A DNA stretch of 64,000 nt, from positions 1-64,000 of IMG/VR virus record IMGVR_UViG_3300032092_002720, one strand, 5' to 3'. Position numbers and translations under genes: made by a program. This stretch comes from a virus. Lineage: Duplodnaviria; Heunggongvirae; Uroviricota; Caudoviricetes. The notes under the pieces were generated by a model. The model saw only the letters and a list, made by a program, of their open reading frames with translations. It was not told the origin of the DNA and did not search any database. The stretch's first letter is position 1; each line of letters starts with the position of its first letter. Of the stretch, positions 4,038-47,912 are shown piece by piece.

Positions 4038-4039
4038 TT

Positions 4040-4086
4040 TTTAGGGTGTACATTTTATCAAAAGTTTGGTAAGGTGGACCTATAAT
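4040..4086 (+). promoter_or_regulatory. Phage promoter motif copy (GTGTACA-N17-TAAGGT + TATAAT)
   Basis: Conserved -35-like (C/G)ATGTACA, 17-nt spacer, -10-like TAnnnT. Second TATAAT at 4081-4086. Confidence 0.5.
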
Positions 4087-4102
4087 GATGAAGGACGAAA
4101 AC

Positions 4103-7815: not shown

Positions 7816-10323
7816 ATGAATTTTTACACCAATGTTACTCGACATCGAAATCAAATTTTAGTACGTGGAATATCTGACGGCAAGCCCGTCAAATTTTCTG
7901 TGAAATACAAACCTTATTTATTCGTTCAAGCAAATGCACAAACCGAACATAAGAACCTGAAGGGTGAATATGTCGGCAAGATGCAGTTCGACTCCATGTC
8001 TGAAACACGAGAGTTTCTGCAAAGTTACGAAAACGTGGCAGGCATGAACATCTATGGCCTCTCTGATTGGCCTTACATGTATATTTATGACAATTATAAG
8101 GGTGAGATCAGGTATGATCCCGCCCTCATTTCAGTTTGTTCGATCGATATCGAGACCAGCATCGAAGGTGGTTTCCCTGACATCGAGGAAGCAGACAAAG
8201 AAATCACAGGTATTACCATCGGCCGCAATGGTAGGAAGACCACATTTGGATGCGGTGAATATAAGGAACATCAAGACAATGTACAATATTACAAATGCGC
8301 AGACGAATCTGCACTCCTACTCGCTTTCCTTGAAGTCTGGAACGGGTCACTCTACTCGCCTGACGTTGTCACAGGCTGGAACATCGAGTTCTTCGACATT
8401 CCGTATCTTGTCAACAGGATTCGAAAGATTCTTGGATCTGATCACGCTGAACGTCTCTCTCCCTGGAAAATGCTCCGTGAATACAAAGTTAACAGCCGTG
8501 GACGAGAGTGCATTTGCTATGCCCCTGTCGGCATCGCCGTCCTTGATTACATCCAGCTTTATCGGAAGTTTACGTACACAGAGCAGGAATCTTACCGACT
8601 TGACTACATCGCTCAAGTTGAGCTAGGTGAAGGTAAGATTGACTTTCGCGACGAAGGTTATACCGACCTTGACGACCTTCGTCTGAGGAACTTCCAACGT
8701 TACATCGAGTATAACATTCGTGACGTTGAAATCGTTGAGAGGCTCGAAGATAAGCTGAAGCTCATCGAGTTGGTCTATGCTTTGGCTTATGACGCCAAGG
8801 TTAACTATGAAGATACTATGACAACCGTGAAACAGTGGGACGTGATCACTCACAACTACCTACTCGATCGAAACATCGTAGTGCCTCTCAACGATAAGAA
8901 TAAACCCGACCGAGCCTTCGTAGGCGGATATGTCAAAGATCCAAAGGTCGGTATGAGTAAATGGGTTGTGTCGTTCGATTTGAACTCCCTTTATCCTCAC
9001 CTTATCATGCAGTACAACATCTCCCCCGAGACGCTTGTCACTCGCTTAAAAGATAAGGTGTCAATCGACGACCTACTTGTTGGTGGCGCTAGTCAGTTCG
9101 GTGGCTATCTTGATAAAACGAACTGCACTATCGCCGCCAACCTTTGTATCTATACAAAAGAAAAACGCGGCTTCTTGCCATCGATTATGGATCGTATGTA
9201 TGACGATCGTACGAAATACAAGAAGCAGATGATCGAGTGTAAGAAGGAATATGAGAAGACGAAAGATCCTCGTCTTGTCAAGGAAATCGCACGACTCGAT
9301 AACATGCAGATGGCCAAGAAGATTCAGTTGAACTCGGCTTATGGTGCTCTCGGTAACAAGTGGTTCCGTTGGTTTGACGTGAACAATGCCGAAGCCATCA
9401 CCACCTCTGGTCAGCTCAGCATTCGTTGGATCGAGAAGAAGCTCAACGACTATCTCAACAAATTGTTGAAGACAGAAAACTTTGACTATGTGTTGGCTTC
9501 TGATACCGACTCGGTGTATGTGACGCTCGAATACCTCGTCAAGAATGTATTCGGTGATGATGTGCCTGAAACCAAGAAGGTGATTCAGTACATCGACAAG
9601 ATCTGTAAGGAACGAATCGAACCATTCATCGATCGTTCTTATCAAGAGCTTGCCGAATATATGCATGCATATGCTCAGAAGATGCAAATGAAGCGAGAGA
9701 ACATCGCAGACAAAGGCATCTGGAAAGCCAAGAAGATGTACATCCTCAATGTGTGGAACTCTGAAGGCGTTGAGTATGAGAAGCCGAAGTTGAAGATGAC
9801 AGGCATCGAAGCAGTTCGATCCTCGACTCCGACCGCATGTCGTGATGCCATTAAAAAGTCTCTCGAGATTATTATGGCTGGATCTGAATCGGATCTTCAG
9901 AAGTATGTGGCCAACTTCAAGTCAGAGTTTTCCTCTCTTGGATTTGACGACGTGGCCTTCACCCGTGGTGTCAAGGACATCGAGAAATATTGGGTAGGCG
10001 GTAGGTTCCAAAGCCAGACACCTATCCATGTTCGTGGTTCTGTGGTCTACAACGAAATGTTGAAGAAGAAGAAACTCACAAATAAATATCAATCTATTAC
10101 CAGCGGTGAGAAGATTAAGTTCGCATACTTGAAAAACCCAAATCCGACACAAGACTATGTTATCTCGTGTCCGAATGGTCTACCAAAAGAATTGAAGATG
10201 GAAGCTTACATCGACTATGCTGTGCAGTTCGAGAAAGGCTATCTCAGTCCTATCGAATCTATCACTAACACAATGGGCTGGCAAGCAGAAAAACGCGCAA
10301 CACTGGAGGATTGGTTCTCATGA
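7816..10323 (+). CDS. 43: Family B DNA polymerase (T4 gp43-like)
   Basis: Exo I motif CSIDIETS, Pol motifs SLYPHLIM and LASDTDSVYV (DTDS), KxxxNSxYG. T4-like N-terminus, so the start is probably the ATG at 7816 (MNFYTNV) rather than 7792. Confidence 0.9.
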   Translation: MNFYTNVTRHRNQILVRGISDGKPVKFSVKYKPYLFVQANAQTEHKNLKGEYVGKMQFDSMSETREFLQSYENVAGMNIYGLSDWPYMYIYDNYKGEIRYDPALISVCSIDIETSIEGGFPDIEEADKEITGITIGRNGRKTTFGCGEYKEHQDNVQYYKCADESALLLAFLEVWNGSLYSPDVVTGWNIEFFDIPYLVNRIRKILGSDHAERLSPWKMLREYKVNSRGRECICYAPVGIAVLDYIQLYRKFTYTEQESYRLDYIAQVELGEGKIDFRDEGYTDLDDLRLRNFQRYIEYNIRDVEIVERLEDKLKLIELVYALAYDAKVNYEDTMTTVKQWDVITHNYLLDRNIVVPLNDKNKPDRAFVGGYVKDPKVGMSKWVVSFDLNSLYPHLIMQYNISPETLVTRLKDKVSIDDLLVGGASQFGGYLDKTNCTIAANLCIYTKEKRGFLPSIMDRMYDDRTKYKKQMIECKKEYEKTKDPRLVKEIARLDNMQMAKKIQLNSAYGALGNKWFRWFDVNNAEAITTSGQLSIRWIEKKLNDYLNKLLKTENFDYVLASDTDSVYVTLEYLVKNVFGDDVPETKKVIQYIDKICKERIEPFIDRSYQELAEYMHAYAQKMQMKRENIADKGIWKAKKMYILNVWNSEGVEYEKPKLKMTGIEAVRSSTPTACRDAIKKSLEIIMAGSESDLQKYVANFKSEFSSLGFDDVAFTRGVKDIEKYWVGGRFQSQTPIHVRGSVVYNEMLKKKKLTNKYQSITSGEKIKFAYLKNPNPTQDYVISCPNGLPKELKMEAYIDYAVQFEKGYLSPIESITNTMGWQAEKRATLEDWFS

Positions 10324-15496: not shown

Positions 15497-16294
15497 ATGA
15501 ATCGTATTGCTAAGATCGCCGTTCTCGCTGGTTTGATGGCCACGACTGCTGCATGTACTCGAATTGAAACTGGTGAAGTTGGTGTTCGTCGGACATTTAA
15601 CAAGACTATTGAAACCACTGAACTGATGCCTGGTTCTGTTAATCAGACCATCTTTGGTGATGTATTGACGTTCCCAACGAAGGACGTTCAGGTTGACGTA
15701 GCTGACTTGACTCCACTCGCTTCGGATAACTCGACAGTTGCTGACTTCGATATGGCTGTCATCTACTCGATTAATCCTGGTTCGGTTGCAGAACTCTACA
15801 TCGAGAAGAACCGTGGCTTCCACGCTGACACCGAAGAAGGTGACACTCTCCTGATGTACAACTACATTCGTCAGCTTGGTCGCAATGCTGCCTATAAGGT
15901 TGCACGTAAGTATGAGTCATTGAAGATGGCTGATAATCGTGCTGAGATGGAACAACTGATTCGTCAGGAAGTTGTAGCACAGCTCGCTTCTGAGAAGCTT
16001 GACGGTGCAATTTCAATCTCACAGGTTCTTGTTCGTCAGGTAAAGCCTGCTGCAAATATCGTAGCCTCGGCTAATGCTCTTGTTCAGGCTCAGAATGCTG
16101 AAAAGCAAAAGCTGGTAGAGGTTCGTACCGCAAAGTTGGAAGCTGAACGTATTGCTGCTCTGAACGCCAACGCAGGCGCAACGAAGTACATGGAAGCAAC
16201 TGCTCTCGTAACGATCGCCGAAGCTGTCAAGGAAGGTAAGGTTTCTACCATTATCGTTCCTTACGACTTCAAGGGTATCGTCAACGTAAAGTAA
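15497..16294 (+). CDS. SPFH/band-7 (HflK/C-like) domain lipoprotein
   Basis: Signal peptide ending in the lipobox-like TAAC. GEVGVRR and a coiled ALVQAQNAEKQKLVEVRTAKLEAERIAA stretch typical of SPFH domains. Confidence 0.55.
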   Translation: MNRIAKIAVLAGLMATTAACTRIETGEVGVRRTFNKTIETTELMPGSVNQTIFGDVLTFPTKDVQVDVADLTPLASDNSTVADFDMAVIYSINPGSVAELYIEKNRGFHADTEEGDTLLMYNYIRQLGRNAAYKVARKYESLKMADNRAEMEQLIRQEVVAQLASEKLDGAISISQVLVRQVKPAANIVASANALVQAQNAEKQKLVEVRTAKLEAERIAALNANAGATKYMEATALVTIAEAVKEGKVSTIIVPYDFKGIVNVK

Positions 16295-17182: not shown

Positions 17183-17574
17183 TTGTTCAGAACGCAGTAA
17201 ATTGTTTGTCATGTGGAGATCTCATCGTCTCTAAGCATCGTCATGACTTTGTAAATTGCACTTGCGGTGCTGTATGGGTAGATGGCGGTCAGGACTACCT
17301 GCGTCGTGTAGGTGACTTTGAAAACGCCGTCGACTTGTCTTGGTCACTGCCAGACAAGTTATATTTTGATTGTGCTGATGCTGCTGGCCTTGCTATGGAT
17401 AGCGGTCGTAATACTAAAGGCATCGCCAATGCAGTGATGCGTACTCTTCGTGAAGCTGGTCGAGTGATCGCCGAAGGTGAACAAAGAATTCTAGCTCATA
17501 ATCCTCGTATGGATGAGATTATGGTTGAAGAAGCAGATGGAACAATTAATCGTTATAAGAAGGTTGTAGAATGA
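17179..17574 (+). CDS. hypothetical Cys-rich protein
   Basis: CLSCGD...CTCG putative zinc ribbon; ATGA overlap. Confidence 0.35.
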   Translation: MIVQNAVNCLSCGDLIVSKHRHDFVNCTCGAVWVDGGQDYLRRVGDFENAVDLSWSLPDKLYFDCADAAGLAMDSGRNTKGIANAVMRTLREAGRVIAEGEQRILAHNPRMDEIMVEEADGTINRYKKVVE

Positions 17575-18656
17575 CTTATTTTTTACGTACTGGTAATACT
17601 TACCGTGTAACTGACGAAGCTGCACTGGATCTCCATGAGTTGCTGCCTGCTGGTAACTACATCATCAAGCAAGATCAGTTTGGTAATTTGTTCCTCGAGG
17701 AAACTGATAAGTTCAAGCCGCTGAGTAAGTACTACGGCGATTGTTTGAAGCATGCTGATCGTATTCATCGTACTTTTGCCGATCGTCCTTCCAGCACTGG
17801 TGTCATGCTAACTGGCGAGAAGGGTTCTGGTAAGACTCTGCTTGCAAAGCAGCTTTCCATTCTCGGCTACGAGCTTGGTATTCCTACCATCATCATTAAT
17901 CATGACTGGACTGGCGATGCTTTCAATAAGTTCCTTGCAGACATCGATCAGCCATGCATTATCCTGTTCGACGAGTTCGAGAAGGTCTACAACCATCAGA
18001 AGCAGGAAGCTATCCTGACTCTGCTCGACGGTGTGTTTCCTTCGAAGAAGCTGTTCGTTCTGACTTGTAATGACAAGTGGCGTATCGACCAACATATGCG
18101 TAATCGGCCCGGTCGTATCTTCTACATGATTGACTTCAAGGGTCTGACGGCCGAGTTCATAGTTGAATATTGCAACGATAACCTCGAGGATAAGTCTCAT
18201 ATCGATCAGATCACGAAGATCGCTACTCTGTTTACTGAGTTCAACTTTGACATGCTGAAGGCAATGGTCGAAGACATGAACCGCTACGGTGAGACTCCAC
18301 AGGAAGTCATGCGACTCCTGAATGCCAAGCCCGAGTATGATAGTCGTGATGAGGCCAAGTTCAAGGTCGAGCTGTTTACCGAAAATGGCCAACAAGTCGA
18401 TGATAAGTTCCTGTACACTAAAATGTGGCATCGCAATCCATTGGCTAGCAACTCCATCTTTATTGAACTTAATGACGATGAAGATATCGATGGGCCTGAT
18501 GAATTCGATGGCTGTGAAGGCTACTCGTTCGACCAGTCTGAACTGATTAATATCAATGGCGAAACTGGTACGTTCGAGTATCGATCCAAGGATGGTTCTC
18601 GTCTTAAGCTGACTCGACAAAAGCAGCAAACCTTTAACTACTTTGGAGCTCTCTAA
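17571..18656 (+). CDS. AAA+ ATPase (clamp-loader-like)
   Basis: Walker A GEKGSGKT, Walker B ILFDEFE, sensor-like VLTCND and an arginine-finger-like RNRPGR. ATGA overlap. Confidence 0.6.
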   Translation: MTYFLRTGNTYRVTDEAALDLHELLPAGNYIIKQDQFGNLFLEETDKFKPLSKYYGDCLKHADRIHRTFADRPSSTGVMLTGEKGSGKTLLAKQLSILGYELGIPTIIINHDWTGDAFNKFLADIDQPCIILFDEFEKVYNHQKQEAILTLLDGVFPSKKLFVLTCNDKWRIDQHMRNRPGRIFYMIDFKGLTAEFIVEYCNDNLEDKSHIDQITKIATLFTEFNFDMLKAMVEDMNRYGETPQEVMRLLNAKPEYDSRDEAKFKVELFTENGQQVDDKFLYTKMWHRNPLASNSIFIELNDDEDIDGPDEFDGCEGYSFDQSELININGETGTFEYRSKDGSRLKLTRQKQQTFNYFGAL

Positions 18657-19765
18657 TGAAGGAAGCATGCATCGTCGGTTTTGGAATGATCGATGCGTTA
18701 GGCGATAATCCCATCGATTGTTGGGAGAATATGCTTAACGATCGAGACTTCCATAAACCTATTGAACCCCATGTACATGAAGGTCACACTCTTAAGGTAA
18801 AAACTGCCTTCTATCCTGATGTCGAGATCGACCAAGAATTGCAACCTCGTACTGTAGCATATGGTATGCATGCAGTCGAGCAAGCTTTGCATATGGCTGG
18901 TCTACCACACTCTTCAAGCGTAGGCGTCATCTTCTCGACTTTGACAGGTGGAAATTCCTTTAAAGCAAAGCTAGACGCCGTAGGCAGAAAGCAAAAGCCT
19001 AAGCAGATCCTTCGCTCTACGAAGGATTATCTCTGCAGCCAAATCTCAATCAAGTATGGATATACTGGTATCAATACCATGGTATATTCTGCTTGTGCTA
19101 CAGGTTTGGTAAGCATCGAATATGCTATGCGAATGCTCGATGAGTATGACTATGTGATCGTAGGCGGTTCTGATGCTGGCGTAAATCATATGGATCTCTA
19201 CTTCTTCTCGATTATCAAAGCAATCGGTTCGAAGTCGATGCCATTCGATAAGAATCGCGACGGCTTTATTATGGGCGAAGGCGCAGGTTGCATCATCCTT
19301 CAGTCGAGAGAAAAGGCCGAAGCGATGGGTTCGAAGGTCTATGCTCGTATCACTGGAGTTTCGAATGCTTCAGATGCACACGATCCGACTGCACCTTCTG
19401 GAGCCGGAGCTCGTCTTTGCTTGGAGAAGCTGGATCTCGAAGGAGTCGACTCAGTCAACTCACATGGAACCAGCACTCCACTCGGAGATGTGGTAGAGTA
19501 TGACGTGGTTCGCGAGTTTACTGATGCACCGATCTATTCCAATAAAGGAAAAATTGGACATACTTTCGCCGCGGCAGGTGTACTTGAAACGATTTATAGT
19601 GTACTGTCTATTCAGAACGGCGTGATTCCTCATACCGCTGGTTGTCAAGACACTGATATGGATGTGGTGACAGAGAACATCGAGACTGACGTCAAGAAGG
19701 TTCTTGTTAATTCATTTGGATTTGGTGGCAAGTGTTGTTCTATTATTGTTGAAAAGGAGTATTGA
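18656..19765 (+). CDS. Beta-ketoacyl-(ACP) synthase (KAS I/II-like, short form)
   Basis: Active-site Cys in YSACATG; His in NSHGTSTPLGD; His/Lys in NKGKIGHTFAAAG; C-terminal NSFGFGG. At 369 aa it is shorter than FabF. Confidence 0.8.
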   Translation: MKEACIVGFGMIDALGDNPIDCWENMLNDRDFHKPIEPHVHEGHTLKVKTAFYPDVEIDQELQPRTVAYGMHAVEQALHMAGLPHSSSVGVIFSTLTGGNSFKAKLDAVGRKQKPKQILRSTKDYLCSQISIKYGYTGINTMVYSACATGLVSIEYAMRMLDEYDYVIVGGSDAGVNHMDLYFFSIIKAIGSKSMPFDKNRDGFIMGEGAGCIILQSREKAEAMGSKVYARITGVSNASDAHDPTAPSGAGARLCLEKLDLEGVDSVNSHGTSTPLGDVVEYDVVREFTDAPIYSNKGKIGHTFAAAGVLETIYSVLSIQNGVIPHTAGCQDTDMDVVTENIETDVKKVLVNSFGFGGKCCSIIVEKEY

Positions 19766-22474: not shown

Positions 22475-23080
22475 ATGATAAAAAAACGATTCAGAGAGTT
22501 TGTTGGTTCAGGTACACTCACGATATTCGATATCGATGAGACGCTGTTCCATACATATGCAAAGGTTGCTGTTGTGAAAGATGGCAAGGTTGTTCGAATG
22601 CTAGACAACCAAGAGTTCAATACTTACAAGCGTAAGAAGGGTGAAACCTACGATTTCGGAGAGTTTGCTAACGCAGAAGTGTTCCGCAAGTCATCGAAAC
22701 CTATCACTCGTATGGTTGCTAAAACGAAAGCTATCTTTGCCAATTCTCGTAAGAATCCTCATAGTCGAGTGATTATCTGCACAGCACGAGCTGACTTCGA
22801 TAACAAGGATATCTTCCTTCAGACGTTCAGAGATCATGGTCTGCCTATCGATAATATCCATGTCGAACGTGCCGGCAACTTGAAGATCGACTCTTCGGCA
22901 GAAGCCAAGAAGATCATCTTTCGAAAGTATATAAATACTAAGAACTACGTAAAGCTTCGGTTGTTTGATGATGCTCCTAGCAATCTTCAGGCATTTCTTT
23001 CCTTGAAGAAGGAATTTCCTGACATTACGTTCGAAGCCTTCTTTGTAAATCCTGATGGATCGGTAAAAACAGTACGATGA
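22475..23080 (+). CDS. HAD-superfamily phosphatase
   Basis: Motif I FDIDETLFH (DxDxT). The promoter -10 sits only 6 nt upstream, so the transcript is probably leaderless or nearly so. Confidence 0.55.
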   Translation: MIKKRFREFVGSGTLTIFDIDETLFHTYAKVAVVKDGKVVRMLDNQEFNTYKRKKGETYDFGEFANAEVFRKSSKPITRMVAKTKAIFANSRKNPHSRVIICTARADFDNKDIFLQTFRDHGLPIDNIHVERAGNLKIDSSAEAKKIIFRKYINTKNYVKLRLFDDAPSNLQAFLSLKKEFPDITFEAFFVNPDGSVKTVR

Positions 23081-24246
23081 CAAGTTTTAGAAATTTCCTT
23101 GCAGAAGAGCTTGATGAAAGCAAACTGAAGCATCTTGAGCATGCTGAAGATCACGTGATCAATGCTGGTCACGAAGGCTTTTCTCATGCCTATCACAATC
23201 TGAAAGATGTGCATGATAAGTTGACAGGAAAGAAGAACGACACAAGAATCACCATGAAGTATGATGGTTCTCCTTCTGTGGTATTCGGTCGCCATCCTGA
23301 AACTGGTCGTTTCTTCGTAGCATCAAAGTCTGTCTTTAACAAGAATCCAAAGATCAACTATACAGAAGAAGATATTCAGCGTAACCATGGACATGCTCCT
23401 GGCCTCGTGTCGAAGTTGAAAGCAGCTTTGCAACATCTTCCGAAGGTGACACCGAAGAAGGGTGTTTTCCAAGGAGATATCATGCATACTCCTGACGATG
23501 TACATGAATCTGATGGTCGTGTACACTTTACGCCTAACACTATCACTTACTCTGCTAGCAAAAACTCTCCGCACGGTAAAGCCGCATTGAATGCCAAGGT
23601 TGGTGTCGCTGTACATACAAAGTATAACGGCAAGAACCTCGAGGATATGCAAGCCGAACATGGTGCTCAGCTAGATGACTTTGGACTGCACAAAGACGTG
23701 CATCTGATTTCGACAGAGCATCATCTCGATAACATTAAGTTTACTCCCCAGCATCGCGAACGCTTTGCAAAGGCTATGACTGCAGCTGCTGCATACAATA
23801 AAAAGGCAAAGCCTGAAACTTATGAATCTTTGAAGGGCCACGAAATTCCTTTGAAGACTTACATCAATCATACGGTTCGTACTGGCACTAAGCCTAATGT
23901 AGAAGGTTTCATGAACCATTACATGAAGTCTCATCAGAAAAAAATCGAAAGTGTAAAGACAGCAGCATCGAAGGCAACTAAGACTGCGGCTATGGAATCA
24001 GACATCGGTCACGTTCAACGTAATCGTGCTCACTTCGAAAACGTTCTGAACCAGCACAAGCATCTACAAAGAGCAAAGGATATCCTTGCGAAGACTCTTT
24101 CGAGTAGTGCTGAGTTCGATCATAGCATCAACGGTAAGAAGTCAAAGCCTGAAGGATTCGTAGTAGTCAGACATAATCGTCCTACTAAAATCGTAGATCG
24201 TGCTGAATTCTCGGCTGCCAATTTCAACAGGGATAAAACAGTATGA
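23077..24246 (+). CDS. His-rich hypothetical protein with KxDG and EGFVVV motifs (possible nucleotidyltransferase)
   Basis: MKYDGSP resembles ligase/capping motif I, and PEGFVVVRH resembles motif IV, but the spacing (~300 aa) is atypical. ATGA overlaps on both sides. Confidence 0.3.
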   Translation: MTSFRNFLAEELDESKLKHLEHAEDHVINAGHEGFSHAYHNLKDVHDKLTGKKNDTRITMKYDGSPSVVFGRHPETGRFFVASKSVFNKNPKINYTEEDIQRNHGHAPGLVSKLKAALQHLPKVTPKKGVFQGDIMHTPDDVHESDGRVHFTPNTITYSASKNSPHGKAALNAKVGVAVHTKYNGKNLEDMQAEHGAQLDDFGLHKDVHLISTEHHLDNIKFTPQHRERFAKAMTAAAAYNKKAKPETYESLKGHEIPLKTYINHTVRTGTKPNVEGFMNHYMKSHQKKIESVKTAASKATKTAAMESDIGHVQRNRAHFENVLNQHKHLQRAKDILAKTLSSSAEFDHSINGKKSKPEGFVVVRHNRPTKIVDRAEFSAANFNRDKTV

Positions 24247-24854
24247 AGTCTATTCACATCACACAAGGACGATTCAATCCTGTTCATGCCGGCCATGAAA
24301 TGGTTGTCAAGCATGTGATGGACGCAGCCAAGAAAGAAGGTGCAGATCATAAGATCTTGACAACCGGATCACATGATGCCAAGAAGAATCCTCTGACTCC
24401 TGAGCAGAAGGTCAAGCATCTTTCTCGTGCTGTCAAAGGTGCACATGTCGAGGCGATGACGAAAGAACATCCGACTCTGCTTCATCAGATGTCGAAGCTG
24501 CATAAGCAAGGTTACACACACGTGACTATGCACGTTGGTTCTGATCGTGTCAAAGAGTTTCATGATCTACTGCACAGATATAATGGTCAAGATCTGAAGC
24601 ACGGCCACTATAACTTTAAGAGTATTAAAGTAAAGTCTGTAGGCGGTGAGCGCAAAGAAGGCGGCGGTGGAATCGAATCTGCTTCTGGTACTACTATGCG
24701 TAAGCATGCCACATCCGGTGATAAAGAATCATTCCACAAGATGGCTCCATCCGGCATGAGTAAAGCACATAAAGACGAACTGTACCACGATGTTCGCAAG
24801 GGTATGGGTATCCACGAATCGTTCATCGCAAGATTTAAAAACTGGATTAGCTGA
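24243..24854 (+). CDS. NMN adenylyltransferase (NadM/NadR-type)
   Basis: GRFNPVHAGH matches the NadM/NadR GRFQPFHKGH motif. ASGTTMRKH matches the ISSTxIR motif. Confidence 0.65.
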   Translation: MKSIHITQGRFNPVHAGHEMVVKHVMDAAKKEGADHKILTTGSHDAKKNPLTPEQKVKHLSRAVKGAHVEAMTKEHPTLLHQMSKLHKQGYTHVTMHVGSDRVKEFHDLLHRYNGQDLKHGHYNFKSIKVKSVGGERKEGGGGIESASGTTMRKHATSGDKESFHKMAPSGMSKAHKDELYHDVRKGMGIHESFIARFKNWIS

Positions 24855-28014: not shown

Positions 28015-28304
28015 TCGGATTTAAGGAATTCATCACTGAGCGTGGCGAAGATTCGAAAGGCCACTTCATTGCCACCGAGAAGGGTGCAGGTATGACAGCG
28101 AAGGGTGTAAAAGCCTATCGTGCCAAGAATCCTGGATCCAAGCTTCAGACTGCTGTGACTGGAAAAGTAAAACCCGGATCCAAAGATGCAGGTAGACGTA
28201 AGTCTTTCTGTGCTCGTATGAGCGGCGTCAAAGGTCCGATGAAAGATGAAAAAGGTAGACCGACTCGCAAGGCGATGTCGCTTCGTAGATGGAAGTGCAA
28301 TTGA
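28011..28304 (+). CDS. small basic protein
   Basis: ATGA overlap with the upstream gene; K/R-rich. Confidence 0.35.
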   Translation: MIGFKEFITERGEDSKGHFIATEKGAGMTAKGVKAYRAKNPGSKLQTAVTGKVKPGSKDAGRRKSFCARMSGVKGPMKDEKGRPTRKAMSLRRWKCN

Positions 28305-28738
28305 TGGAAGAGATTACAAACCCGCTGAAGGTAGCCTTCGCTGACACTTATGCTTTCTATGTGAAGGCACAGAACTATCACTGGAATGTCGAAGGTCCAT
28401 TCTTTGCGATGTACCACGAGTTCTTTGGTAAGATCTACGAAGAAGTAGGTGGAGCTATCGACACGTTTGCCGAAGAGATTCGTGCACAGAATGCATATGC
28501 TCCTGCAGCATTCGGTCGTTTTAAAGAATTGACAACTATTCAAGACGAAGTTCTTATCATTAAGCCTGAACAGATGGTTGCCAACTTGTTTTCAGACAAT
28601 GCCAAAGTACTGGCTTCTGTACAAGCAGCAAGAGACGTAGCAGATAAGTACAATGAAAACGGTCTCGTTAACTTCCTCGAAGAGAGACTCGATCAGCACA
28701 ACAAACATGCATGGATGCTCAAAGCATCGATGAAATAA
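28289..28738 (+). CDS. Dps / ferritin-like DNA-protection protein
   Basis: YAFYVKAQNYHWNVEGPFFAMYHEFFGKIYEEV and EEIRAQNAY match the Dps ferroxidase-site helices. An alternative start at 28304 overlaps the upstream stop (TGATG). Confidence 0.7.
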   Translation: MEVQLMEEITNPLKVAFADTYAFYVKAQNYHWNVEGPFFAMYHEFFGKIYEEVGGAIDTFAEEIRAQNAYAPAAFGRFKELTTIQDEVLIIKPEQMVANLFSDNAKVLASVQAARDVADKYNENGLVNFLEERLDQHNKHAWMLKASMK

Positions 28739-43196: not shown

Positions 43197-43586
43197 GTGG
43201 GTAAGGTACTAGAACACAAGCATTTGATTGTAAGAGCAGAGCTGAATAATCCTCCACAATGTACATCGGCGATCGATGAGTGGATGAAAAAGCTGGTCAA
43301 TCAGATTGATATGAAAATTTTAATGGGACCATATACAGTTTATTCTGATATGGTTGGTAATCGTGGATTGACTGCCGTGACTATCATCGAAACTAGTCAT
43401 ATTGCTCTACATGTTTGGGACGAATGCGAGCCTGCTATGGCTCAACTGGATGTTTATACGTGCAGCACTTTAAATATTCAAGATGTGTTCGATGCCATCA
43501 CTGAATGGGATCCTACAAAAGTTGAGTATAAGTATATAGACCGAGAAAACGGGTTGACATTAATTGAGAAAAATGAGGTGTTATAA
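43197..43586 (+). CDS. speD: S-adenosylmethionine decarboxylase proenzyme (small, pyruvoyl-type)
   Basis: IIETSHIALHVWDE matches the self-cleavage/active-site motif (E-S cleavage, ...SHIxxHTWPE). GTG start after an AGGAG SD. Confidence 0.6.
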   Translation: MGKVLEHKHLIVRAELNNPPQCTSAIDEWMKKLVNQIDMKILMGPYTVYSDMVGNRGLTAVTIIETSHIALHVWDECEPAMAQLDVYTCSTLNIQDVFDAITEWDPTKVEYKYIDRENGLTLIEKNEVL

Positions 43587-44102: not shown

Positions 44103-44352
44103 ATATTTAAAGGGCGTTCTCCAAACTGGAATCGCAAATGTAACCTTCGTAAAGAAGGACGGAACACAACGAAATCTTCTATGCACTCTGTTACCGAGCG
44201 AATTGCCGGCACAGACTGATCTTGAAGAAGCCGTACAGAAGAAGACTCCAAATCCTGAAGTGCTCGCTGTATGGGATCTTGAAAATAAAGGTTGGCGTTC
44301 GTTCCGCTACGACTCGGTTCTCGGCTTTAATGTACTGTCGCTAGACGCATGA
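44047..44352 (+). CDS. hypothetical protein
   Basis: Start uncertain; overlaps the glutaredoxin 3' end. Confidence 0.3.
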   Translation: MTNSLNGTTDQNDRSWQNEYLKGVLQTGIANVTFVKKDGTQRNLLCTLLPSELPAQTDLEEAVQKKTPNPEVLAVWDLENKGWRSFRYDSVLGFNVLSLDA

Positions 44353-44690
44353 TCTACATGGTAGACATTGATCAGACCATCTGTAAAACACCATATACAG
44401 ATGGTCAACATCGCTATGGATTGGCAACTCCATTTAAGCATCGTATCGAGAAGATAAATAAACTATACGATCAGGGCAATACCATCATCTATTGGACAGC
44501 CCGTGGTTCAGGATCTGGAATCGACTGGACCGAACTTACTACAAAACAACTAAAAGATTGGGGATGCAAGTTCCACGAAGTCCGTCTCGGAAAGCCATCA
44601 TACGACGTTTGGATCGATGATAAAGCAATTGGAGATGGGTTCTTCTTTTACGATGAAGATATGGAATTGCTGAACGCTACTAAGGAATAA
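44349..44690 (+). CDS. Minimal HAD-superfamily phosphatase (possible heptose bisphosphate phosphatase role)
   Basis: Motif I VDIDQTIC, motif II WTARG, motif III GKP, motif IV IDDK. ATGA overlap. Confidence 0.5.
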   Translation: MIYMVDIDQTICKTPYTDGQHRYGLATPFKHRIEKINKLYDQGNTIIYWTARGSGSGIDWTELTTKQLKDWGCKFHEVRLGKPSYDVWIDDKAIGDGFFFYDEDMELLNATKE

Positions 44691-44692
44691 TA

Positions 44693-45682
44693 ATGAATAA
44701 TCAAGATAAGATTGAACTGAACGAACTGAACAAGGAATCGAATGGTGGAACAGAACTTACCACTCGAAATCTCTTCCACCGACTTTCAAGTGATGAACTC
44801 GATGGTATCCAAATTATCACTGCTCGCGTCCGCGACCTTGATCCTAACCGAATTAAGATCTATCATCTACACGACCTTGCCGGCGATCCGGAGGCTTCAC
44901 ACCTTCAAGATCCAGCTTCTCGAGCTCGCTTCCAAAAGTTGGTCTTCAGCTCTAACTGGCAGTATCAACAGTATCGTGACTATCTTGGAGTTCCATATAG
45001 CAATCATTCAACAGTTATCGAAACAGGCATCGAGCCTATTCCACTCGTTGACAAACCAAAGGATAAGATACGTCTCATTTATACGTCCACGCCTCATCGT
45101 GGATTGGAGATTCTGGTTCCTGTTTTTATCGCTCTTGCCGATAAATATCCAAACATCGAGCTAGACGTCTTCTCTTCATTCGGCATCTATGGTCCAGGTT
45201 GGGAAGGTCGTGATCAGGCATACGAACCGCTGTTCGAAGCATGTCGTAATCATCCACAAATTAACTATCATGGCTGGGCAGATCAGGAGACAGTACGTGC
45301 CGCATATCAAAAAGCTCACATCTTTGCATATCCTTGTATCTGGCCGGAAACTTCGTGCAGGTCACTTATTGAAGCTATGTCGGCTGGTTGTCTGGCGGTT
45401 CATCCTAACTTCTCTGCTTTGGCTGACACGTCGGGCGGGTTGACTGTCCAGTATGACGGCGATCACGAGAATCCAAATCTGCATGCTAATATCTTTGCAC
45501 ACACTCTGATGTATGCTATCGAGAACATGCAACAAAATGACATGACTAACATGTTGTCATTTGTCAAAGCCTACGCAGATACTCGTTTCGGTTGGGATTC
45601 TGTAATTCCCAAGTGGAAGGGGCTCATTGCTTCGTTAAAGGAACAAAACCGTGATATTGGCCAAAGCACCACTCAGAGTTAG
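44693..45682 (+). CDS. Glycosyltransferase (GT-B, GT4-like)
   Basis: C-terminal ETSCRSLIEAMSAGCLAV (Ex7E-type donor-binding motif). Confidence 0.6.
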   Translation: MNNQDKIELNELNKESNGGTELTTRNLFHRLSSDELDGIQIITARVRDLDPNRIKIYHLHDLAGDPEASHLQDPASRARFQKLVFSSNWQYQQYRDYLGVPYSNHSTVIETGIEPIPLVDKPKDKIRLIYTSTPHRGLEILVPVFIALADKYPNIELDVFSSFGIYGPGWEGRDQAYEPLFEACRNHPQINYHGWADQETVRAAYQKAHIFAYPCIWPETSCRSLIEAMSAGCLAVHPNFSALADTSGGLTVQYDGDHENPNLHANIFAHTLMYAIENMQQNDMTNMLSFVKAYADTRFGWDSVIPKWKGLIASLKEQNRDIGQSTTQS

Positions 45683-46592
45683 TTTTTTCGGCGGGGGTAG
45701 TGATATCCCCGCCCACTTTGAAAAATGGGGTGGAGCAACCATCTCAACTGCCATTGACAAGTATGTCTATGTAGCAGTCATGCACACACCACACGACCAC
45801 ATCAAAGTTTCTTATTCGAAACAAGAGCTCGTTACAGACGTAGACGATATCCAGAATGAAATCGTTCGTAATGCACTCAAGTTCTTCGGTATCAAATCCA
45901 ACATCGAGATCACATCATTCGCAGACATTCCCACGATCGGTAACGGTCTTGGTGGATCGTCTGCTTTTACTTGTGCTCTGATTAAAGCTTTGTCAGCATA
46001 TCTTGGTTATGAATACGTAAATCCTTATCTTATTGCGAAGACTGCTTGCAATATCGAAATTGACATGTGCGGTTGGAAGATCGGCATGCAAGATCAGTTT
46101 GCGTCTACATTCGGCGGTATGAACTACATCGAGTATTCGAATAGTGGTCGTGTGAATGTAAAACGTTTGGATACAATGGCAATCGAGAACTATATGATCT
46201 TGATTCCTACAAACATAGAGCATCATGCAGCTAAGATCCTTGACAATATCAACTTTGAATCGAAAGAATTTACAATTCGTGAGCTTGCACGTATAGCAGA
46301 GATGCAAAGTACCCAACTTGTAAATCCATTTGAGTACGGTCGATTGCTCGATTCTGCATGGATTCTCAAGAAGCAGATGAGTGCTGAGATCTCCAGTAGT
46401 GATATAGATATTATGTACGACAAGTGCAAATCTGCTGGTGCCTATGGGGCTAAATTGCTTGGAGCCGGAGGCGGAGGATACATGCTAGCAATCACAGATT
46501 CGAAAGAAATGATTCGCCGAGAATTTTCAGACAGAACATGCCTCGATGTAGGTATCGCACATGAAGGAGCAAGAGTTGTCTATCGAGACTGA
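45651..46592 (+). CDS. GHMP sugar kinase (D-glycero-D-manno-heptose 7-phosphate kinase HddA-like)
   Basis: N-terminal PLRVSFFGGGSD; GHMP motif PTIGNGLGGSSAF; C-terminal GAKLLGAGGGGYML. Confidence 0.65.
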   Translation: MILAKAPLRVSFFGGGSDIPAHFEKWGGATISTAIDKYVYVAVMHTPHDHIKVSYSKQELVTDVDDIQNEIVRNALKFFGIKSNIEITSFADIPTIGNGLGGSSAFTCALIKALSAYLGYEYVNPYLIAKTACNIEIDMCGWKIGMQDQFASTFGGMNYIEYSNSGRVNVKRLDTMAIENYMILIPTNIEHHAAKILDNINFESKEFTIRELARIAEMQSTQLVNPFEYGRLLDSAWILKKQMSAEISSSDIDIMYDKCKSAGAYGAKLLGAGGGGYMLAITDSKEMIRREFSDRTCLDVGIAHEGARVVYRD

Positions 46593-47157
46593 CATTATAT
46601 TTGATCATATGGGCCTAATTAATATTGGGTTTGCAAGTATCGATCATGAAGAATTTAAAAAAGCAGCCGAACTAATTTGGCTGACAAGCATTTCAAATCA
46701 TCGTAACAACATCTATACTATCGGTAACGGTGCATCTGCATCCATCGCTCAGCATTGGGCGTGCGACTATACCAAAGGTTGTAAGAAAGGTGGATTACGC
46801 CCAAGAGTTATTTCTTTGGCGGCAAATATTCCACTGATGACAGCCGTGGCGAATGACATCTCCTATGACGACGTTTACTCGTTCCAGCTCGATGCACTCG
46901 GACAAGAAGGCGACGTACTCGTGGCCATCTCTTCGAGTGGTAATTCTCCAAACGTTGTCAAGGCAATTGAGACTGCTAAGTCATTGAAAATGAAGACTAT
47001 TGCCTTGACAGGTTTTTCACCAGATAATAAGTGCGCTCAACTCGCAGATATCTCTCTACATGTCGATATCCAAGAATACGAGGCAGCAGAAGACGTTCAT
47101 CAAGCTATTATGCATATGATTGCTAAATATATCAGAAACAGAGGTAAGGTTACATAA
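46561..47157 (+). CDS. gmhA: Sedoheptulose-7-phosphate isomerase GmhA (SIS domain)
   Basis: GNGASASIAQHW, EGDVLVAISSSGNSPNVVKAI and HQAIMHMI are collinear with E. coli GmhA. Confidence 0.8.
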   Translation: MKEQELSIETDIIFDHMGLINIGFASIDHEEFKKAAELIWLTSISNHRNNIYTIGNGASASIAQHWACDYTKGCKKGGLRPRVISLAANIPLMTAVANDISYDDVYSFQLDALGQEGDVLVAISSSGNSPNVVKAIETAKSLKMKTIALTGFSPDNKCAQLADISLHVDIQEYEAAEDVHQAIMHMIAKYIRNRGKVT

Positions 47158-47912
47158 TGTCAAATCAACCAGTATCAATTCATCAGATCGCAGCCCAGTT
47201 CGGCACAGATAGTGGTAACTATGAAGTACTCACTGACGCTGCCATTCGATCGAAGGGTGTAGAAGGTGCAGCAGTCGAGATTGGTGTCCGTCTTGGTGGT
47301 GGTCTACAAAAGATCATCGACGGTCTCGTAGGAAGTGGTCAAACTCCTGAGAAGCCAGTCTTTGGTATCGATCCTTATGGCAACATCGAGTACTATCGCG
47401 ATGAGATCTTCAAGGAAGGTCGTTGCGACTATACGAATGAGATGCGCGACATTTGCATGATCAACTTGTATCTGTACTGCCGTCAGAAGAACGTCAACTT
47501 CTACATGTTTAATCTCGAAGATACAGAATTCTTCAATCGTTATGCAGACGGTGTTCCTGTCTATGCAGACTATAAGCAGCTTGTCAATAAGTACAGCGTA
47601 GTCCACTTCGACGGTCCTCATACACTCGAAGCTCTCGATGCTGAGATTGCATTCTTCCTCGAGCGGTCAGATCCTGGCGCTGTCTTCGTCTTCGACGACG
47701 TAGAGATGTACGAGCATGATGCTGTGCACAATCAGTTGCTAGAGTATGGAATGGAAATTGCCATAAGAACTCCTCGTAAGTGGTCATACGTCAAGAAGGA
47801 ACATGTCGACAAGAAGTGGGAACCAGTCGTTGGGACTCCTGGTTGGGAACCAAATGCAGATCAATACACGCCAAAGGGTGGTCCAAGTTTTAATTATAAA
47901 ATCGACCTGTGA
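47157..47912 (+). CDS. Class I SAM-dependent methyltransferase-like (CmcI/Methyltransf_24-like), putative sugar O-methyltransferase
   Basis: AVEIGVRLGGG (motif I-like), VHFDGPH, VFVFDDV. TAATG overlap with gmhA. Confidence 0.4.
   Translation: MSNQPVSIHQIAAQFGTDSGNYEVLTDAAIRSKGVEGAAVEIGVRLGGGLQKIIDGLVGSGQTPEKPVFGIDPYGNIEYYRDEIFKEGRCDYTNEMRDICMINLYLYCRQKNVNFYMFNLEDTEFFNRYADGVPVYADYKQLVNKYSVVHFDGPHTLEALDAEIAFFLERSDPGAVFVFDDVEMYEHDAVHNQLLEYGMEIAIRTPRKWSYVKKEHVDKKWEPVVGTPGWEPNADQYTPKGGPSFNYKIDL

Follow-up and report, generated by a model that had tools for sequence, protein, structure and literature searches.

The five genes at 44349–47912 of the window (the whole 64-kb stretch of DNA analyzed here) probably serve to provide a heptose in nucleotide-activated form to a glycosyltransferase (GT), itself one of the five and a core gene in the lineage of this uncultured T4-like phage. 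Most likely, a host sugar phosphate is converted into an activated seven-carbon sugar for the GT; this sugar is probably also methylated. Viral NDP-heptose pathways are already known as a type, and what is new here is the combination of enzymes.

Organization and conservation of the cluster

The earlier note described five coupled genes at 44349–47912, and this description holds in coordinates, strand, packing, and conservation across 58 loci. The five ORFs have exactly the boundaries it gave, all lie on the plus strand, and are packed in an operon-like manner, with junctions of the block ORFs of −4, +2, −32, −32, and −1 nt. The kinase ORF starts with GTG at 45651 and overlaps the GT gene by 32 nt. 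Promoter- and terminator-like motifs within the block show no excess over the shuffled expectation. On identical public contigs, gene callers place the start of the SIS isomerase at TTG 46576, 15 nt downstream of 46561, yielding a product of 193 aa. Nucleotide metabolism and replication genes (ThyX, RNR, nrdC, and rnh) surround the cluster in the window.

GT and kinase are kept together in 50 of 58 judgeable related phage loci, and the block is therefore no chance juxtaposition; 47 of these 50 loci also contain the SIS gene, and 43 contain the HAD gene. The methyltransferase, present in 24 of the 58 loci, is an optional accessory and, like a dehydratase, varies between related loci. In L082/83/86, an RmlB-like 4,6-dehydratase gene is inserted between the HAD and GT genes. 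The remaining 8 loci have the GT alone. From phage phiM12 to Caulobacter phage Cr30, the GT is found at a constant position between nrdC/WYL_2 and P362/rnh, and ~100 metagenomic loci carry it at the same place; no family was detectable for P362, its constant neighbor. Cr30 has the same gene order, Grx-(epimerase)-GT-kinase-SIS-P362. The phiM12 group has the GT only, with no kinase, SIS, or CTP-transferase gene. Within this T4 sub-lineage, the GT is the ancestral element, and in phages of the phiM12 type it functions with no sugar genes of phage origin, so that the heptose module would have been added to supply or change the donor. Since GTs of 82 to 86% identity also occur without sugar genes nearby, the GT may not need heptose. 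Overall, the conserved element of the locus is the GT rather than the pathway, to which the sugar genes belong as an added module.

Isomerase and kinase

The ORF at 46561–47157 (plus strand; start possibly TTG 46576) encodes a GmhA-type SIS isomerase. It matches SIS_2 in Pfam (70.3 bits), its top NCBIfam match is gmhA (TIGR00441; 116.5 bits versus an equivalog cutoff of 209), and GmhA structures in the PDB score 67 to 93 bits. All 40 phage sequences compared keep S55, H61, D94, S119–S121, S124, H175, and H180. The pair of changes E65D/Q172E, in which Asp replaces the catalytic Glu65 and Glu replaces Gln172, is fixed in the same set; the D65/E172 signature is also present in the isomerase of a bacterial HddA/HddC locus and in cyanophage g205. 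A KpsF/GutQ identity was rejected (24 bits versus 116.5 for gmhA), as was a DiaA identity, since both GmhA catalytic positions that are lost in DiaA are kept here.

The ORF at 45651–46592 (plus strand) encodes an HddA/WcbL-type GHMP sugar kinase with GHMP_kinases_N and GHMP_kinases_C domains (Pfam) and the motifs PLRVSFFGGGSD, GNGLGGSSA, and GAGGGG. Its top NCBIfam match is HddA (NF049969) at 125.6 bits (cutoff 600), followed by mevalonate kinase at 70.9. In the PDB, heptokinases 4usk, 3k85, and 4n3o score 99 to 110 bits and other GHMP kinases at most 46; each of the four nearest solved relatives is a heptose-7-P kinase, and the score margin is twofold. A galacto- or mevalonate kinase identity was rejected by the NCBIfam and PDB scores. 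The nearest cellular kinase/SIS pair sits within a classical HddA + HddC + GmhA polysaccharide locus. In the refutation tests, the SIS protein grouped with GmhA instead of KpsF/GutQ or DiaA and the kinase with heptose-7-P kinases, which bears out the GmhA and HddA-like assignments made earlier from the sequence.

Phosphatase, glycosyltransferase, and methyltransferase

The first ORF (44349–44690, plus strand) encodes a cap-less mini-HAD phosphatase of 113 aa. Its DxDxT core, T50, R52, K82, and D90-D91 are invariant across 46 homologs; it matches phrog_1238 (5e-29) and, at 36 bits, PDB 9iqw, a “capsule biosynthesis protein.” It shares 36 to 42% identity with RB69 ORF051c-family proteins from ara-5hoC phages and 46 to 58% with cyanophage copies that adjoin nucleotidyltransferase and kinase genes. 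A GmhB identity was rejected; the family is the RB69 gp51/AfhF/EcbF-type mini-HAD. In records of the P-SSM2/S-SM2/SynMITS9220M01 type, the HAD is mostly misannotated as “phosphoheptose isomerase.”

The second ORF (44693–45682, plus strand) encodes a retaining GT4-type GT-B glycosyltransferase (Glycos_transf_1, 34.6 bits versus a cutoff of 26.4) with 2475 homologs found. Its structure model (pLDDT 86, pTM 0.84) has a GT-B fold, with SenB, PimA, TarM, SdgB, GtfA, and HepE as fold neighbors, and both glutamates of the E-x7-E motif, E219 and E227, are invariant. The protein is soluble and acidic (pI 5.5, net charge −11).

The last ORF (47157–47912, plus strand) encodes a metal-dependent sugar O-methyltransferase of the TylF/Methyltransf_24 class. 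It scores 25.2 bits with PF13578 (Methyltransf_24), slightly below the cutoff of 26.3; most of the 120 homologs listed, of 1788 found, bear this domain. The SAM- and metal-binding motifs E41-x-G43-x-R45-x-G47-G48, D72, D152-G-P-H155, and D180-D181 are invariant, and the top fold matches of the model (pLDDT 86.5) are the sugar O-methyltransferases MeT1, SpnH, NovP, CalS11, and MycF. Two labels in the earlier note thus needed partial correction: “HAD phosphatase” stands without membership in GmhB, and the “CmcI-like methyltransferase” is a methyltransferase that by fold is TylF/MycF/CalS11-like.

Nucleotidyltransferase at 5117–5530

A CTP_transf_like nucleotidyltransferase (PF01467, 51.3 bits) is encoded at 5117–5530 on the plus strand, 39 kb away from the cluster. 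Its best NCBIfam matches, rfaE_dom_II (65.7 bits, cutoff 181) and the TagD family (58.1 bits), both fall under cutoff, and it aligns to TagD over its full length. HxGH is conserved, as is the C-terminal motif R-x-H-[ND]-[YW]-S-S-[ST], here RRHNYSSS; the published heptose nucleotidyltransferase motif (F/L)XXGXSTT is absent from this protein. No HddC-type NTP_transferase was detected in any window ORF of at least 120 aa.

In cyanophage SynMITS9220M01, the order is GT, kinase, SIS, a fusion of the CTP-transferase with the same mini-HAD, and epimerase; the GT there is nonhomologous. At least five further lineages (L010-12, L102/103, L110, L112/113, and L116) have the CTP-transferase gene as the direct neighbor of the GT gene, 0 to 3 kb upstream. 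Cr30, which has GT, kinase, and isomerase, encodes a “TagD” 50% identical to the window protein, and the GT-only phiM12 group lacks it. A 53% homolog is the first gene of an NDP-sugar dehydratase/epimerase operon in S-H68, and homologs are also present in many phages without kinase and SIS genes. Genetic coupling of all six genes is thus evident from synteny, one gene fusion, and phyletic pattern. The fusion, the adjacency to the GT elsewhere, and the phyletic pattern support the suggestion that 5117–5530 encodes the missing nucleotidyltransferase. Its RfaE-domain-II/TagD-like label is right as to fold; the leaning toward HldE-C is not, because HldE-C is no nearer than TagD and the heptose motif is absent. 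The pairing of a kinase of the GHMP family with an enzyme of the cytidylyltransferase fold, flagged as atypical, is real and recurrent. No biochemical precedent was found in the literature for passing the alpha product of such a kinase to this fold, which is known for beta-heptose-1-P only.

Proposed pathway

In the proposed pathway, the GmhA-type isomerase would convert host sedoheptulose-7-phosphate to D-glycero-D-manno-heptose-7-phosphate, which the HddA/WcbL-type kinase would phosphorylate at C1 to heptose-1,7-bisphosphate (expected, from the family, as the alpha anomer). The mini-HAD would strip the 7-phosphate, and the cytidylyltransferase-fold enzyme would join the resulting heptose-1-phosphate with NTP to give NDP-heptose. 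The TylF-class enzyme may O-methylate the sugar either as NDP-sugar or after transfer, and the retaining GT4 would move it onto the acceptor. An NDP-sugar intermediate is implied by the RmlB-like dehydratase insertion and the S-H68 operon. Family and subfamily membership of each enzyme, intact catalytic motifs, operon-like packing, and genetic coupling are observed; which sugar is made, in which anomeric form and with which nucleotide, and at what point it is methylated are inferred. Since scores are far under the equivalog cutoffs (HddA 126/600, GmhA 116/209, rfaE_dom_II 66/181), substrate identity is extrapolated. The E65D/Q172E changes, the missing nucleotidyltransferase motif, and the 39-kb distance of that gene within the window count against the proposed pathway.

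Acceptor and alternative explanations

We tentatively place a host cell-envelope glycan first as the acceptor, followed by a phage-encoded protein (e.g., a virion component) and then by DNA. Addition of (methyl-)heptose to a conserved phage-encoded protein such as a capsid, tail, or fiber protein is rather doubtful. The GT is vertically inherited and keeps its core position in phages whose hosts differ widely (Sinorhizobium, Caulobacter, Stenotrophomonas, and freshwater unknowns), which favors an acceptor that travels with the phage, and a soluble, acidic GT with the protein O-glycosyltransferases SdgB and GtfA among its fold neighbors would suit it. In other viruses, glycosylated virions typically go along with terminal O-methyl sugars and sugar pathways encoded by the virus; for T4-like phages, no virion protein is known to us to be glycosylated. 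Moreover, the fold is matched just as well by GT4 enzymes acting on lipids, polymers, and small molecules, no candidate acceptor was found (P362 being without a detectable family), and the gene is located in the early/replication rather than the structural region. Heptosylation of a modified base of phage DNA by the GT, with the module providing an unusual donor so as to evade host modification-dependent nucleases, is quite improbable, even though T4 glucosylates 5hmC and RB69 arabinosylates 5hoC, and the mini-HAD is homologous to the gp51/AfhF phosphatase of the latter pathway (PMC13326640), whose logic is identical. The location among ThyX, RNR, nrdC, and rnh, the split into GT-only and GT-plus-pathway phages resembling that between T4 and RB69, and tailoring genes that differ between near relatives, as an arms race would predict, also favor DNA, as does a metagenomic HAD/kinase, cytidylyltransferase, and GT-B cluster that yields heptosyl-5hmC in E. 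coli (bioRxiv 10.1101/2023.12.21.572611). However, window ORFs of at least 120 aa, covering 64 kb of the genome, contain no ThyA-type dCMP hydroxymethylase/hydroxylase, TET/JBP, DNA C5-methyltransferase, or dCTPase domain, and this lack of hydroxylated-base machinery disfavors DNA glycosylation. The window ThyX has the canonical RHR-x7-S motif, and the only ThyA in the complete Cr30 genome has the dUMP-specifying Asn (PYNIA). The acidic GT is unrelated in sequence to RB69-type arabinosyltransferases, and its best fold matches include neither T4 alpha-GT nor beta-GT.

Two further explanations concern the sugar itself. The substrate of the SIS/GHMP pair could be a different ketose-phosphate or sugar, or the CTP-transferase could make an unrelated CDP-alcohol (e.g., CDP-glycerol), with genome architecture as the only link. 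The scores under cutoff, the isomerase substitutions, the TagD alignment without the heptose motif, and the CTP-transferases widespread in phages without kinase and SIS point this way, but we consider it improbable: the nearest solved kinases all act on heptose-7-P, the D65/E172 signature is shared with the isomerase of the classical HddA/HddC locus, the cyanophage fusion directly follows kinase and SIS, and the CTP-transferase clade heads NDP-sugar tailoring operons. To our knowledge, CDP-glycerol, the TagD-type product, is not a GT4 donor. It is highly improbable that NDP-heptose is itself the end product (a metabolic sink, signal, or decoy) and the GT functionally unrelated; the GT does occur without the module, and one study describes what NDP-heptoses of viruses do physiologically as unknown (PMC11573728), but the kinase lies directly beside a GT in every kinase-bearing lineage, including the nonhomologous one in SynMITS9220M01, and start and stop codons overlap.

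Comparison with known systems

The isomerase and kinase find their best matches in the GmhA-HddA-GmhB-HddC pathway to GDP-D-glycero-alpha-D-manno-heptose, used for the Aneurinibacillus S-layer glycan and, in Campylobacter and Burkholderia (WcbL/WcbN/WcbM), for capsule. The isomerase signature matches that of the bacterial HddA + HddC locus, and dehydratase/O-methyltransferase tailoring and a retaining GT4 fit alpha-linked donors. Unlike in that pathway, a cytidylyltransferase-fold enzyme stands in for the HddC-type NTP_transferase, which was not detected in window ORFs of at least 120 aa, and the phosphatase is the RB69 gp51/EcbF-type HAD, not GmhB. The isomerase-kinase-phosphatase-nucleotidyltransferase logic is common to the ADP-L-glycero-beta-D-manno-heptose pathway and the viral HldE/HldA-HldC “HENases” (Tang et al. 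2024), whose nucleotidyltransferase has the same fold (rfaE_dom_II is the top match). Viral enzymes made NDP-heptose in vitro (PMC11461863, PMC11573728), ADP-heptose in the former study. In contrast to that pathway, the kinase here is GHMP and not PfkB/HldE-N, RRHNYSSS stands in place of (F/L)XXGXSTT (66 versus a cutoff of 181), and the alpha anomer is expected. Viruses were reported to lack the phosphatase of the heptose pathway (PMC11461863); a predicted one is present here.

RB69-type phages use isomerase-kinase-miniHAD-nucleotidyltransferase-GT logic to make UDP-arabinose (PMC13326640), with RB69 gp51-55, DLP3 gp81-83, and HY126 AfhE/AfhF as members of the ara-5hoC pathway. Shared features are the homologous mini-HAD, an SIS isomerase, a C1 kinase, distal dephosphorylation, and nucleotidyl transfer followed by a GT4-like GT-B, in T4-like phages with these genes near nucleotide metabolism. 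Here, however, the isomerase is GmhA-type rather than KpsF/API-type, the kinase is GHMP rather than APH-like, the nucleotidyltransferase has another fold, the GT is not sequence-homologous, and no 5hoC/5hmC synthase was found in window ORFs of at least 120 aa or the Cr30 genome. Homologous HAD, CTP-transferase, kinase, and isomerase also occur among the “heptose/LPS auxiliary metabolic genes” of cyano- and pelagimyophages (P-SSM2, S-SM2, and SynMITS9220M01), which were read as LPS-modifying without tests (PMC7378029, PMC7029224). In those phages, they are part of extensive, hypervariable sugar islands that contain other GTs as well, whereas here they surround a lineage-core GT in the replication module.

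Genomic context of the cluster

The window derives from the genome of an uncultured T4-like myovirus. Its family-B DNA polymerase is ~50% identical to cyanomyovirus counterparts, and UvsX, a gp41-type helicase, gp59, gp32, RNase H, RNR alpha and beta, an nrdC-type glutaredoxin, and ThyX are also encoded. At the nucleotide level, no GenBank phage matched the window or the cluster, while hundreds of metagenomic contigs, some of them >150 kb, matched the window. At a genome size of roughly 150 kb, the window represents ~40% of the total, and absences within it are bounded by this fraction.

The five ORFs described in the earlier note were recovered exactly at the positions assigned to them, every one on the + strand. 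The cluster junctions measure −4, +2, −32, −32, and −1 nt. The frequency of promoter- and terminator-like motifs in the cluster did not exceed that in shuffled sequence, and these motifs therefore provide no argument for separate transcription units. A PADLOC search with the cluster proteins, P362 and P116 (proteins encoded between the glycosyltransferase and RNase H genes), and the CTP-transferase encoded at 5117-5530 matched nothing.

Several other genes of the window, all on the + strand, are worth recording. The 687–amino acid product of 1353-3416 combines a CHASE2 sensor (129 bits) with the catalytic domain of an adenylate/guanylate cyclase (63.7 bits); signalling proteins of this kind are unusual in viruses. 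An AAA/MoxR-like ATPase (17571-18656) is directly followed by a complete beta-ketoacyl synthase (18656-19765; N and C domains, 99 and 71 bits), a fatty-acid/polyketide condensing enzyme in a T4-like phage. A Band_7/SPFH protein (15497-16294), a ferritin-like protein (28289-28738), and an S-adenosylmethionine decarboxylase-like protein (43197-43586) are also present.

Predicted heptose kinase and isomerase

The GHMP kinase (45651-46592, + strand; PF00288 and PF08544) has HddA as its best family, scoring 125.6 bits against NF049969 compared to 70.9 bits for mevalonate kinase; the score lies below the HddA equivalog cutoff of 600 bits. The protein is thus best described as a predicted distant member of the HddA subfamily. 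Its four best solved relatives (WcbL 4usk/4usm, 3k85, and HddA 4n3o) are all heptose-7-phosphate kinases and score 99 to 110 bits, whereas other GHMP structures, mevalonate kinases and galactokinases among them, reach at most 46 bits. The grouping with non-heptose kinases that the earlier note had set up as a challenge to its reading was therefore not seen.

The same is true of the SIS protein (46561-47157, + strand; SIS_2, 70.3 bits). Its top family is GmhA (TIGR00441), at 116.5 bits against a cutoff of 209.45, followed by DiaA at 86 and KpsF at 24 bits. We aligned 40 distinct phage isomerases with GmhA and DiaA, using E. coli numbering; the reference residues were cross-checked against alignments to the Vibrio cholerae (1x94) and Neisseria (5i01) proteins, where the same columns are legible, and against a bacterial homolog linked to HddA/HddC genes. 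H61, D94, S119, S121, S124, H175, and H180 are invariant in 40/40 phage sequences, the three serines being phosphate-binding and H180 catalytic. Catalytic Glu65 is always replaced conservatively by Asp, Gln172 is always Glu, and position 120 is Ser. DiaA, a non-enzymatic paralog, has Ser65 and Asn180, i.e., it lost both positions. With positions 65 and 180 and the phosphate-binding serines in place, 46561-47157 is predicted to be a sedoheptulose-7-phosphate isomerase.

The Asp65/Glu172 pair also occurs in a cyanophage copy of the isomerase and in that encoded by a bacterial polysaccharide locus of high GC content, alongside an HddA-type kinase and an HddC-type transferase. Since it is common to HddA/HddC-linked and cyanophage enzymes, the pair characterizes a GmhA subfamily that accompanies GHMP heptokinases. 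Its presence in a classical HddA/HddC locus rules it out as a sign of a new substrate. The bacterial locus lies on MT835644, the best match to both kinase and isomerase. Besides Wzz-like genes and a GHMP kinase, this high-GC record (MT835644.1, L101), deposited as "UNVERIFIED: Bacteriophage sp.", encodes an SIS protein, a GT, an SDR, and an HddC-type NTP_transferase. Its content resembles that of a bacterial locus for surface polysaccharides more than that of a phage, and it was used solely as a cellular comparator.

A cap-less HAD of the RB69 gp51/AfhF type

The first ORF of the cluster (44349-44690, + strand) encodes a cap-less HAD protein of 113 amino acids with HAD catalytic motifs; DxDxT, Thr50, Lys82, and Asp90-Asp91 are invariant across 46 homologs. 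No GmhB or histidinol-phosphatase-type model matched, and an identity as GmhB was rejected. The sole NCBIfam match is TIGR01689 (EcbF-BcbF), at 16.4 bits against a cutoff of 162, and the sole solved relative is a 134–amino acid "capsule biosynthesis protein" (PDB 9iqw, 4e-8). Homologs were found in 241 GenBank phage records. Those of the RB69 ORF051c family (JS98, Bp7, phiR1-RT "RB69ORF051c", Acj9, Serratia X20, and Shewanella Thanatos-1) are 36 to 42% identical to the mini-HAD over 80 to 88% of its length; other homologs are cyanophage copies adjoining nucleotidyltransferase and kinase genes. The mini-HAD thus shares with the RB69 gp51/AfhF type its homology, a cap-less body of ~110 to 135 amino acids, and association with kinase and nucleotidyltransferase genes. 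The phages named here as carriers of an RB69 ORF051c-family protein make arabinosyl-5-hydroxycytosine, and their protein is the AfhF-type arabinose-1,5-bisphosphate 5-phosphatase (PMC13326640).

In many GenBank T4-like records and in PHROG 1238, mini-HADs of the RB69 ORF051c type are labelled "phosphoheptose isomerase". Judging by the HAD motifs present and the SIS domain absent, this label is a mis-annotation, widespread enough to merit correction. A phosphatase is missing from viral heptose gene sets according to Tang et al. (PMC11461863). The mini-HAD family, a predicted phosphatase, fills this step, which viruses thus do encode.

The candidate nucleotidyltransferase is linked to the cluster from a distance

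The earlier note had suggested that the missing nucleotidyltransferase may be the CTP_transf_like protein encoded at 5117-5530 (+ strand; PF01467, 51.3 bits). Four independent lines, namely, fusion, adjacency, phyletic pattern, and sugar operons, tie this gene to the cluster and support the suggestion. In Synechococcus phage SynMITS9220M01, gene 206 directly follows the GT, kinase, and isomerase genes. Its product (QJT70212, positions 8448-9200 of the comparison locus L002, labelled hypothetical) is a fusion of a mini-HAD and a CTP-transferase, 50.5% identical to the 44349 mini-HAD and 45% identical to the 5117 CTP-transferase. Among the best 120 matches to the CTP-transferase, all at least 88% identical, no new fusion was seen. 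The CTP-transferase gene lies immediately or at most 3 kb upstream of the GT gene in L010-12, L102/103, L110, L112/113, and L116. The complete genome of Caulobacter phage Cr30, which has the GT, kinase, and isomerase, encodes a CTP-transferase at 50% identity, named TagD (AGS81165); rnh is ~1 kb away from its gene, and the cluster is ~6 kb away when the ends of the permuted map are joined. The phiM12 group, which has the GT only, is absent among the 129 phage records with a CTP-transferase homolog. In cyanophage S-H68, a 53% identical homolog heads an operon of 4,6-dehydratase, 3,5-epimerase, and reductase genes as its sole nucleotidyltransferase. In Acinetobacter phage vB_AbaM_3098, a 52% identical CTP_transf_like domain (in XRM23522, L099 4977-5750) is fused to a C-terminal cupin-like domain. 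The S-H68 operon and the cupin fusion together indicate that this CTP-transferase clade does act on sugar phosphates.

The score against rfaE domain II (TIGR02199; 65.7 bits, cutoff 181.5) is about equal to that against TagD (58.1 bits), both being far below cutoff; among solved structures, TagD (41 bits) ranks above HldC 5x9q (25.5 bits). The HxGH motif is kept, and FDLFHAGH is conserved across lineages. The hallmark of heptose nucleotidyltransferases is (F/L)XXGXSTT (PMC11461863). This motif does not occur in the CTP-transferase, which instead has R-x-H-[ND]-[YW]-S-S-[ST], conserved across phage lineages; the region reads RRHNYSSS in the window, REHDWSSS in Cr30, and ENHDYSST in SynMITS9220M01. 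A second CTP_transf_like ORF (24243-24854) was ruled out as the missing enzyme because it is NMN-adenylyltransferase-like; it ends a stretch (23077-24854, + strand) that begins with a DUF6267 protein. No HddC-type NTP_transferase (PF00483) was found in the scanned window ORFs of at least 120 amino acids, whereas one is present in the bacterial comparator L101. By curated thresholds, the cluster lies outside the HddA, GmhA, GmhB, HldE-C, and HddC equivalog families.

GHMP sugar-1-kinases yield sugar-1-phosphates of the alpha-D (or beta-L) form, and the donors of retaining GT4 enzymes are alpha-linked. An alpha-linked NDP-heptose is therefore the self-consistent reading, and the cytidylyltransferase-fold enzyme encoded at 5117-5530 would be the one to make it. 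In the literature, we found no described example of alpha-heptose-1-phosphate paired with an enzyme of this fold.

A core glycosyltransferase with a modular sugar pathway

The glycosyltransferase (44693-45682, + strand) scores 34.6 bits against Glycos_transf_1 (cutoff, 26.4). Its AlphaFold model (pLDDT 86) has a two-Rossmann GT-B fold that is closest to retaining GT4 enzymes, with matches at probability 1.0 to PimA, TarM, SdgB, SenB, and HepE. The E-x7-E motif is present, its glutamates E219 and E227 being invariant. Cultured carriers include DLP6 (48% identity), Cr30 (45%), the phiM12 group (40%), and a few others; RB69-type phages are not among them.

The neighborhood of the GT gene was surveyed by local tblastn over the phage loci collected. 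In 58 of them, the flanks were long enough for an assessment; close relatives are overrepresented in this sample. The order HAD-GT-kinase-SIS was found in 22 loci, and the same order followed by the methyltransferase (MT) gene, as in the window, in 21. CTP-transferase-GT-kinase-SIS-MT and CTP-transferase-GT-kinase each occurred in 3/58 loci, GT-kinase-SIS in a single locus, and the GT gene stood alone in 8. A backbone of glutaredoxin, WYL_2/DUF2693, GT, P362, P116, and RNase H genes is kept as far as Sinorhizobium phage phiM12, where the sugar-precursor genes are absent altogether. In Cr30, the order is Grx-epimerase-GT-kinase-x-SIS-P362, with AGS80894 as the GT, AGS80893 as the kinase, and AGS80891 as the isomerase. 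Since the GT is kept to phiM12 without the sugar genes, it is ancestral and vertically inherited, and the heptose genes are a modular addition with interchangeable tailoring.

P362 (47984-49072, + strand) is a basic protein (pI 9.4) without a detectable family. From phiM12 to the window phage, its gene is always directly downstream of the GT gene or GT module, and P362 may be a partner or target of the GT. Searched against PDB sequences, the family profiles of the GT, P362, and the methyltransferase gave no match. Eight comparison loci (L116-L122 and L135) are contigs in metagenome-assembled genomes labelled Bacteroidetes, Melainabacteria, Flavobacterium, Cellvibrionaceae, Legionella, Actinomycetes, and Hyphomicrobiales. 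Most have part or all of the backbone RNR-Grx-WYL_2-GT-P362-RNase H (entire in L120, only a looser version in L121); in all likelihood, T4-like phage DNA was here assigned to bacterial genomes during binning.

The last ORF of the cluster (47157-47912, + strand) scores 25.2 bits against Methyltransf_24, just below the cutoff of 26.3; the same domain (PF13578) is present in most of its listed homologs. Its model (pLDDT 86.5) resembles MeT1, SpnH, NovP, CalS11, and MycF, the best Foldseek matches (E values of 5e-8 to 1e-5), and ExGxRxGG, D72, DGPH, and DD are invariant. With a class I SAM fold and metal-binding acidic residues, it is a predicted sugar O-methyltransferase of the TylF/Methyltransf_24 class. 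In three loci, all close relatives, an RmlB-like NDP-sugar 4,6-dehydratase gene lies between the HAD and GT genes. The inserted SDR of ~340 amino acids (GGAGFIAHH...YSASK; L082 ~2750-3760, L083 ~3520-4530, and L086 ~8725-9740) suggests putative 6-deoxy-heptose variants of the pathway.

Possible acceptors of the sugar

A host envelope glycan is the acceptor that we tentatively favor. It fits what GT4 enzymes and heptose usually do, and it is the role proposed for phage heptose genes in the literature (PMC7378029, PMC7029224). If the acceptor is host LPS, the cluster would be an ordinary, though well-organised, auxiliary metabolic module. The GT occupies a fixed core position though the envelopes of the hosts differ greatly, which argues for an acceptor of the phage's own; a phage protein is a possible, if somewhat doubtful, candidate of this kind. 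DNA is an improbable one. It would suit the location of the cluster among nucleotide-metabolism genes, the AfhF type of the HAD, and the division into GT-only and GT-plus-pathway phages, which resembles the contrast of T4 and RB69; moreover, a published metagenomic cluster (HAD/kinase, cytidylyltransferase, and GT-B) makes heptosyl-5hmC (bioRxiv 10.1101/2023.12.21.572611). However, DNA hypermodification requires a hydroxylated-pyrimidine enzyme and removal of the canonical dNTP, and no ThyA-type hydroxylase/hydroxymethylase, TET/JBP, C5-methyltransferase, or dCTPase domain was found in ORFs of at least 120 amino acids in the window, i.e., in ~40% of the genome. The window ThyX is canonical, and the complete Cr30 genome has one ThyA with the dUMP-specifying Asn, a normal thymidylate synthase. 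The GT is acidic (pI 5.5), and the T4 alpha- and beta-GT are absent from its top fold matches.

We give very little credence to a more far-reaching version, in which the phage's DNA, or some other macromolecule of the phage, is heptosylated by the GT via a previously undescribed alpha-linked NDP-(O-methyl)heptose from a cytidylyltransferase-fold enzyme, without a ThyA-type hydroxylated-base pathway; a 2OG-Fe(II) oxygenase such as that encoded at 3423-4037 might act on DNA instead. If true, T4-like phages that are abundant in freshwater and among alphaproteobacterial phages would possess a new kind of counter-defence hypermodification. The 3423-4037 protein (+ strand, 1 kb upstream of the CTP-transferase gene) is 2OG-Fe(II) oxygenase-like, with a weak PhyH match and membership in phrog_2954 (labelled "ferrochelatase"); it is without a TET/JBP signature and is the only candidate hydroxylase within the window.

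GT homologs with 41 to 45% identity are also encoded on Paraburkholderia, Caballeronia, and Burkholderia chromosomes (L124, L126, L128, L130-L134, L136, L140, and L144), always preceded by a conserved GT-A-like ORF of ~260 amino acids ("WIDADIGF"). In L126, the gene also adjoins those for a C39-peptidase ABC exporter, HlyD, and an OMP; the other loci do not consistently share these type I secretion genes. With the GT-A-like ORF as the sole conserved partner, the Burkholderiaceae loci give no hint of the acceptor.

Comparison with known systems

According to published reports, virus-encoded NDP-heptose enzymes work in vitro (Tang et al. 2024; PMC11461863, PMC11573728), and commentary on them states their purpose in viruses as unknown (PMC11573728). 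Cyanophage copies are annotated as LPS genes (PMC7378029, PMC7029224). The general kind of pathway is thus already known. What is new is the hybrid enzyme set of a GHMP kinase, an RB69-type mini-HAD, and a cytidylyltransferase-fold nucleotidyltransferase; the fusion and synteny evidence that binds it together; the viral phosphatase; and the recognition that a lineage-core GT is served by a module whose tailoring steps vary. The hybrid pathway may yield a hitherto undescribed nucleotide-sugar.

The heptose genes are physically coupled to a single GT gene, which belongs to the fixed core of a T4-like lineage of very high abundance; public metagenomes contain >2,400 homologs of the GT and ~7,000 of the nucleotidyltransferase. 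The same arrangement is present in Cr30, a cultured phage whose Caulobacter host is genetically tractable, and the role of viral activated heptose is therefore directly testable.

Overall, the first two steps of the cluster resemble those of the GDP-D-glycero-alpha-D-manno-heptose pathway. Its phosphatase and general scheme are like those of the RB69 UDP-arabinose pathway, and its nucleotidyltransferase has the fold of the enzyme that acts at the HldE-C step.
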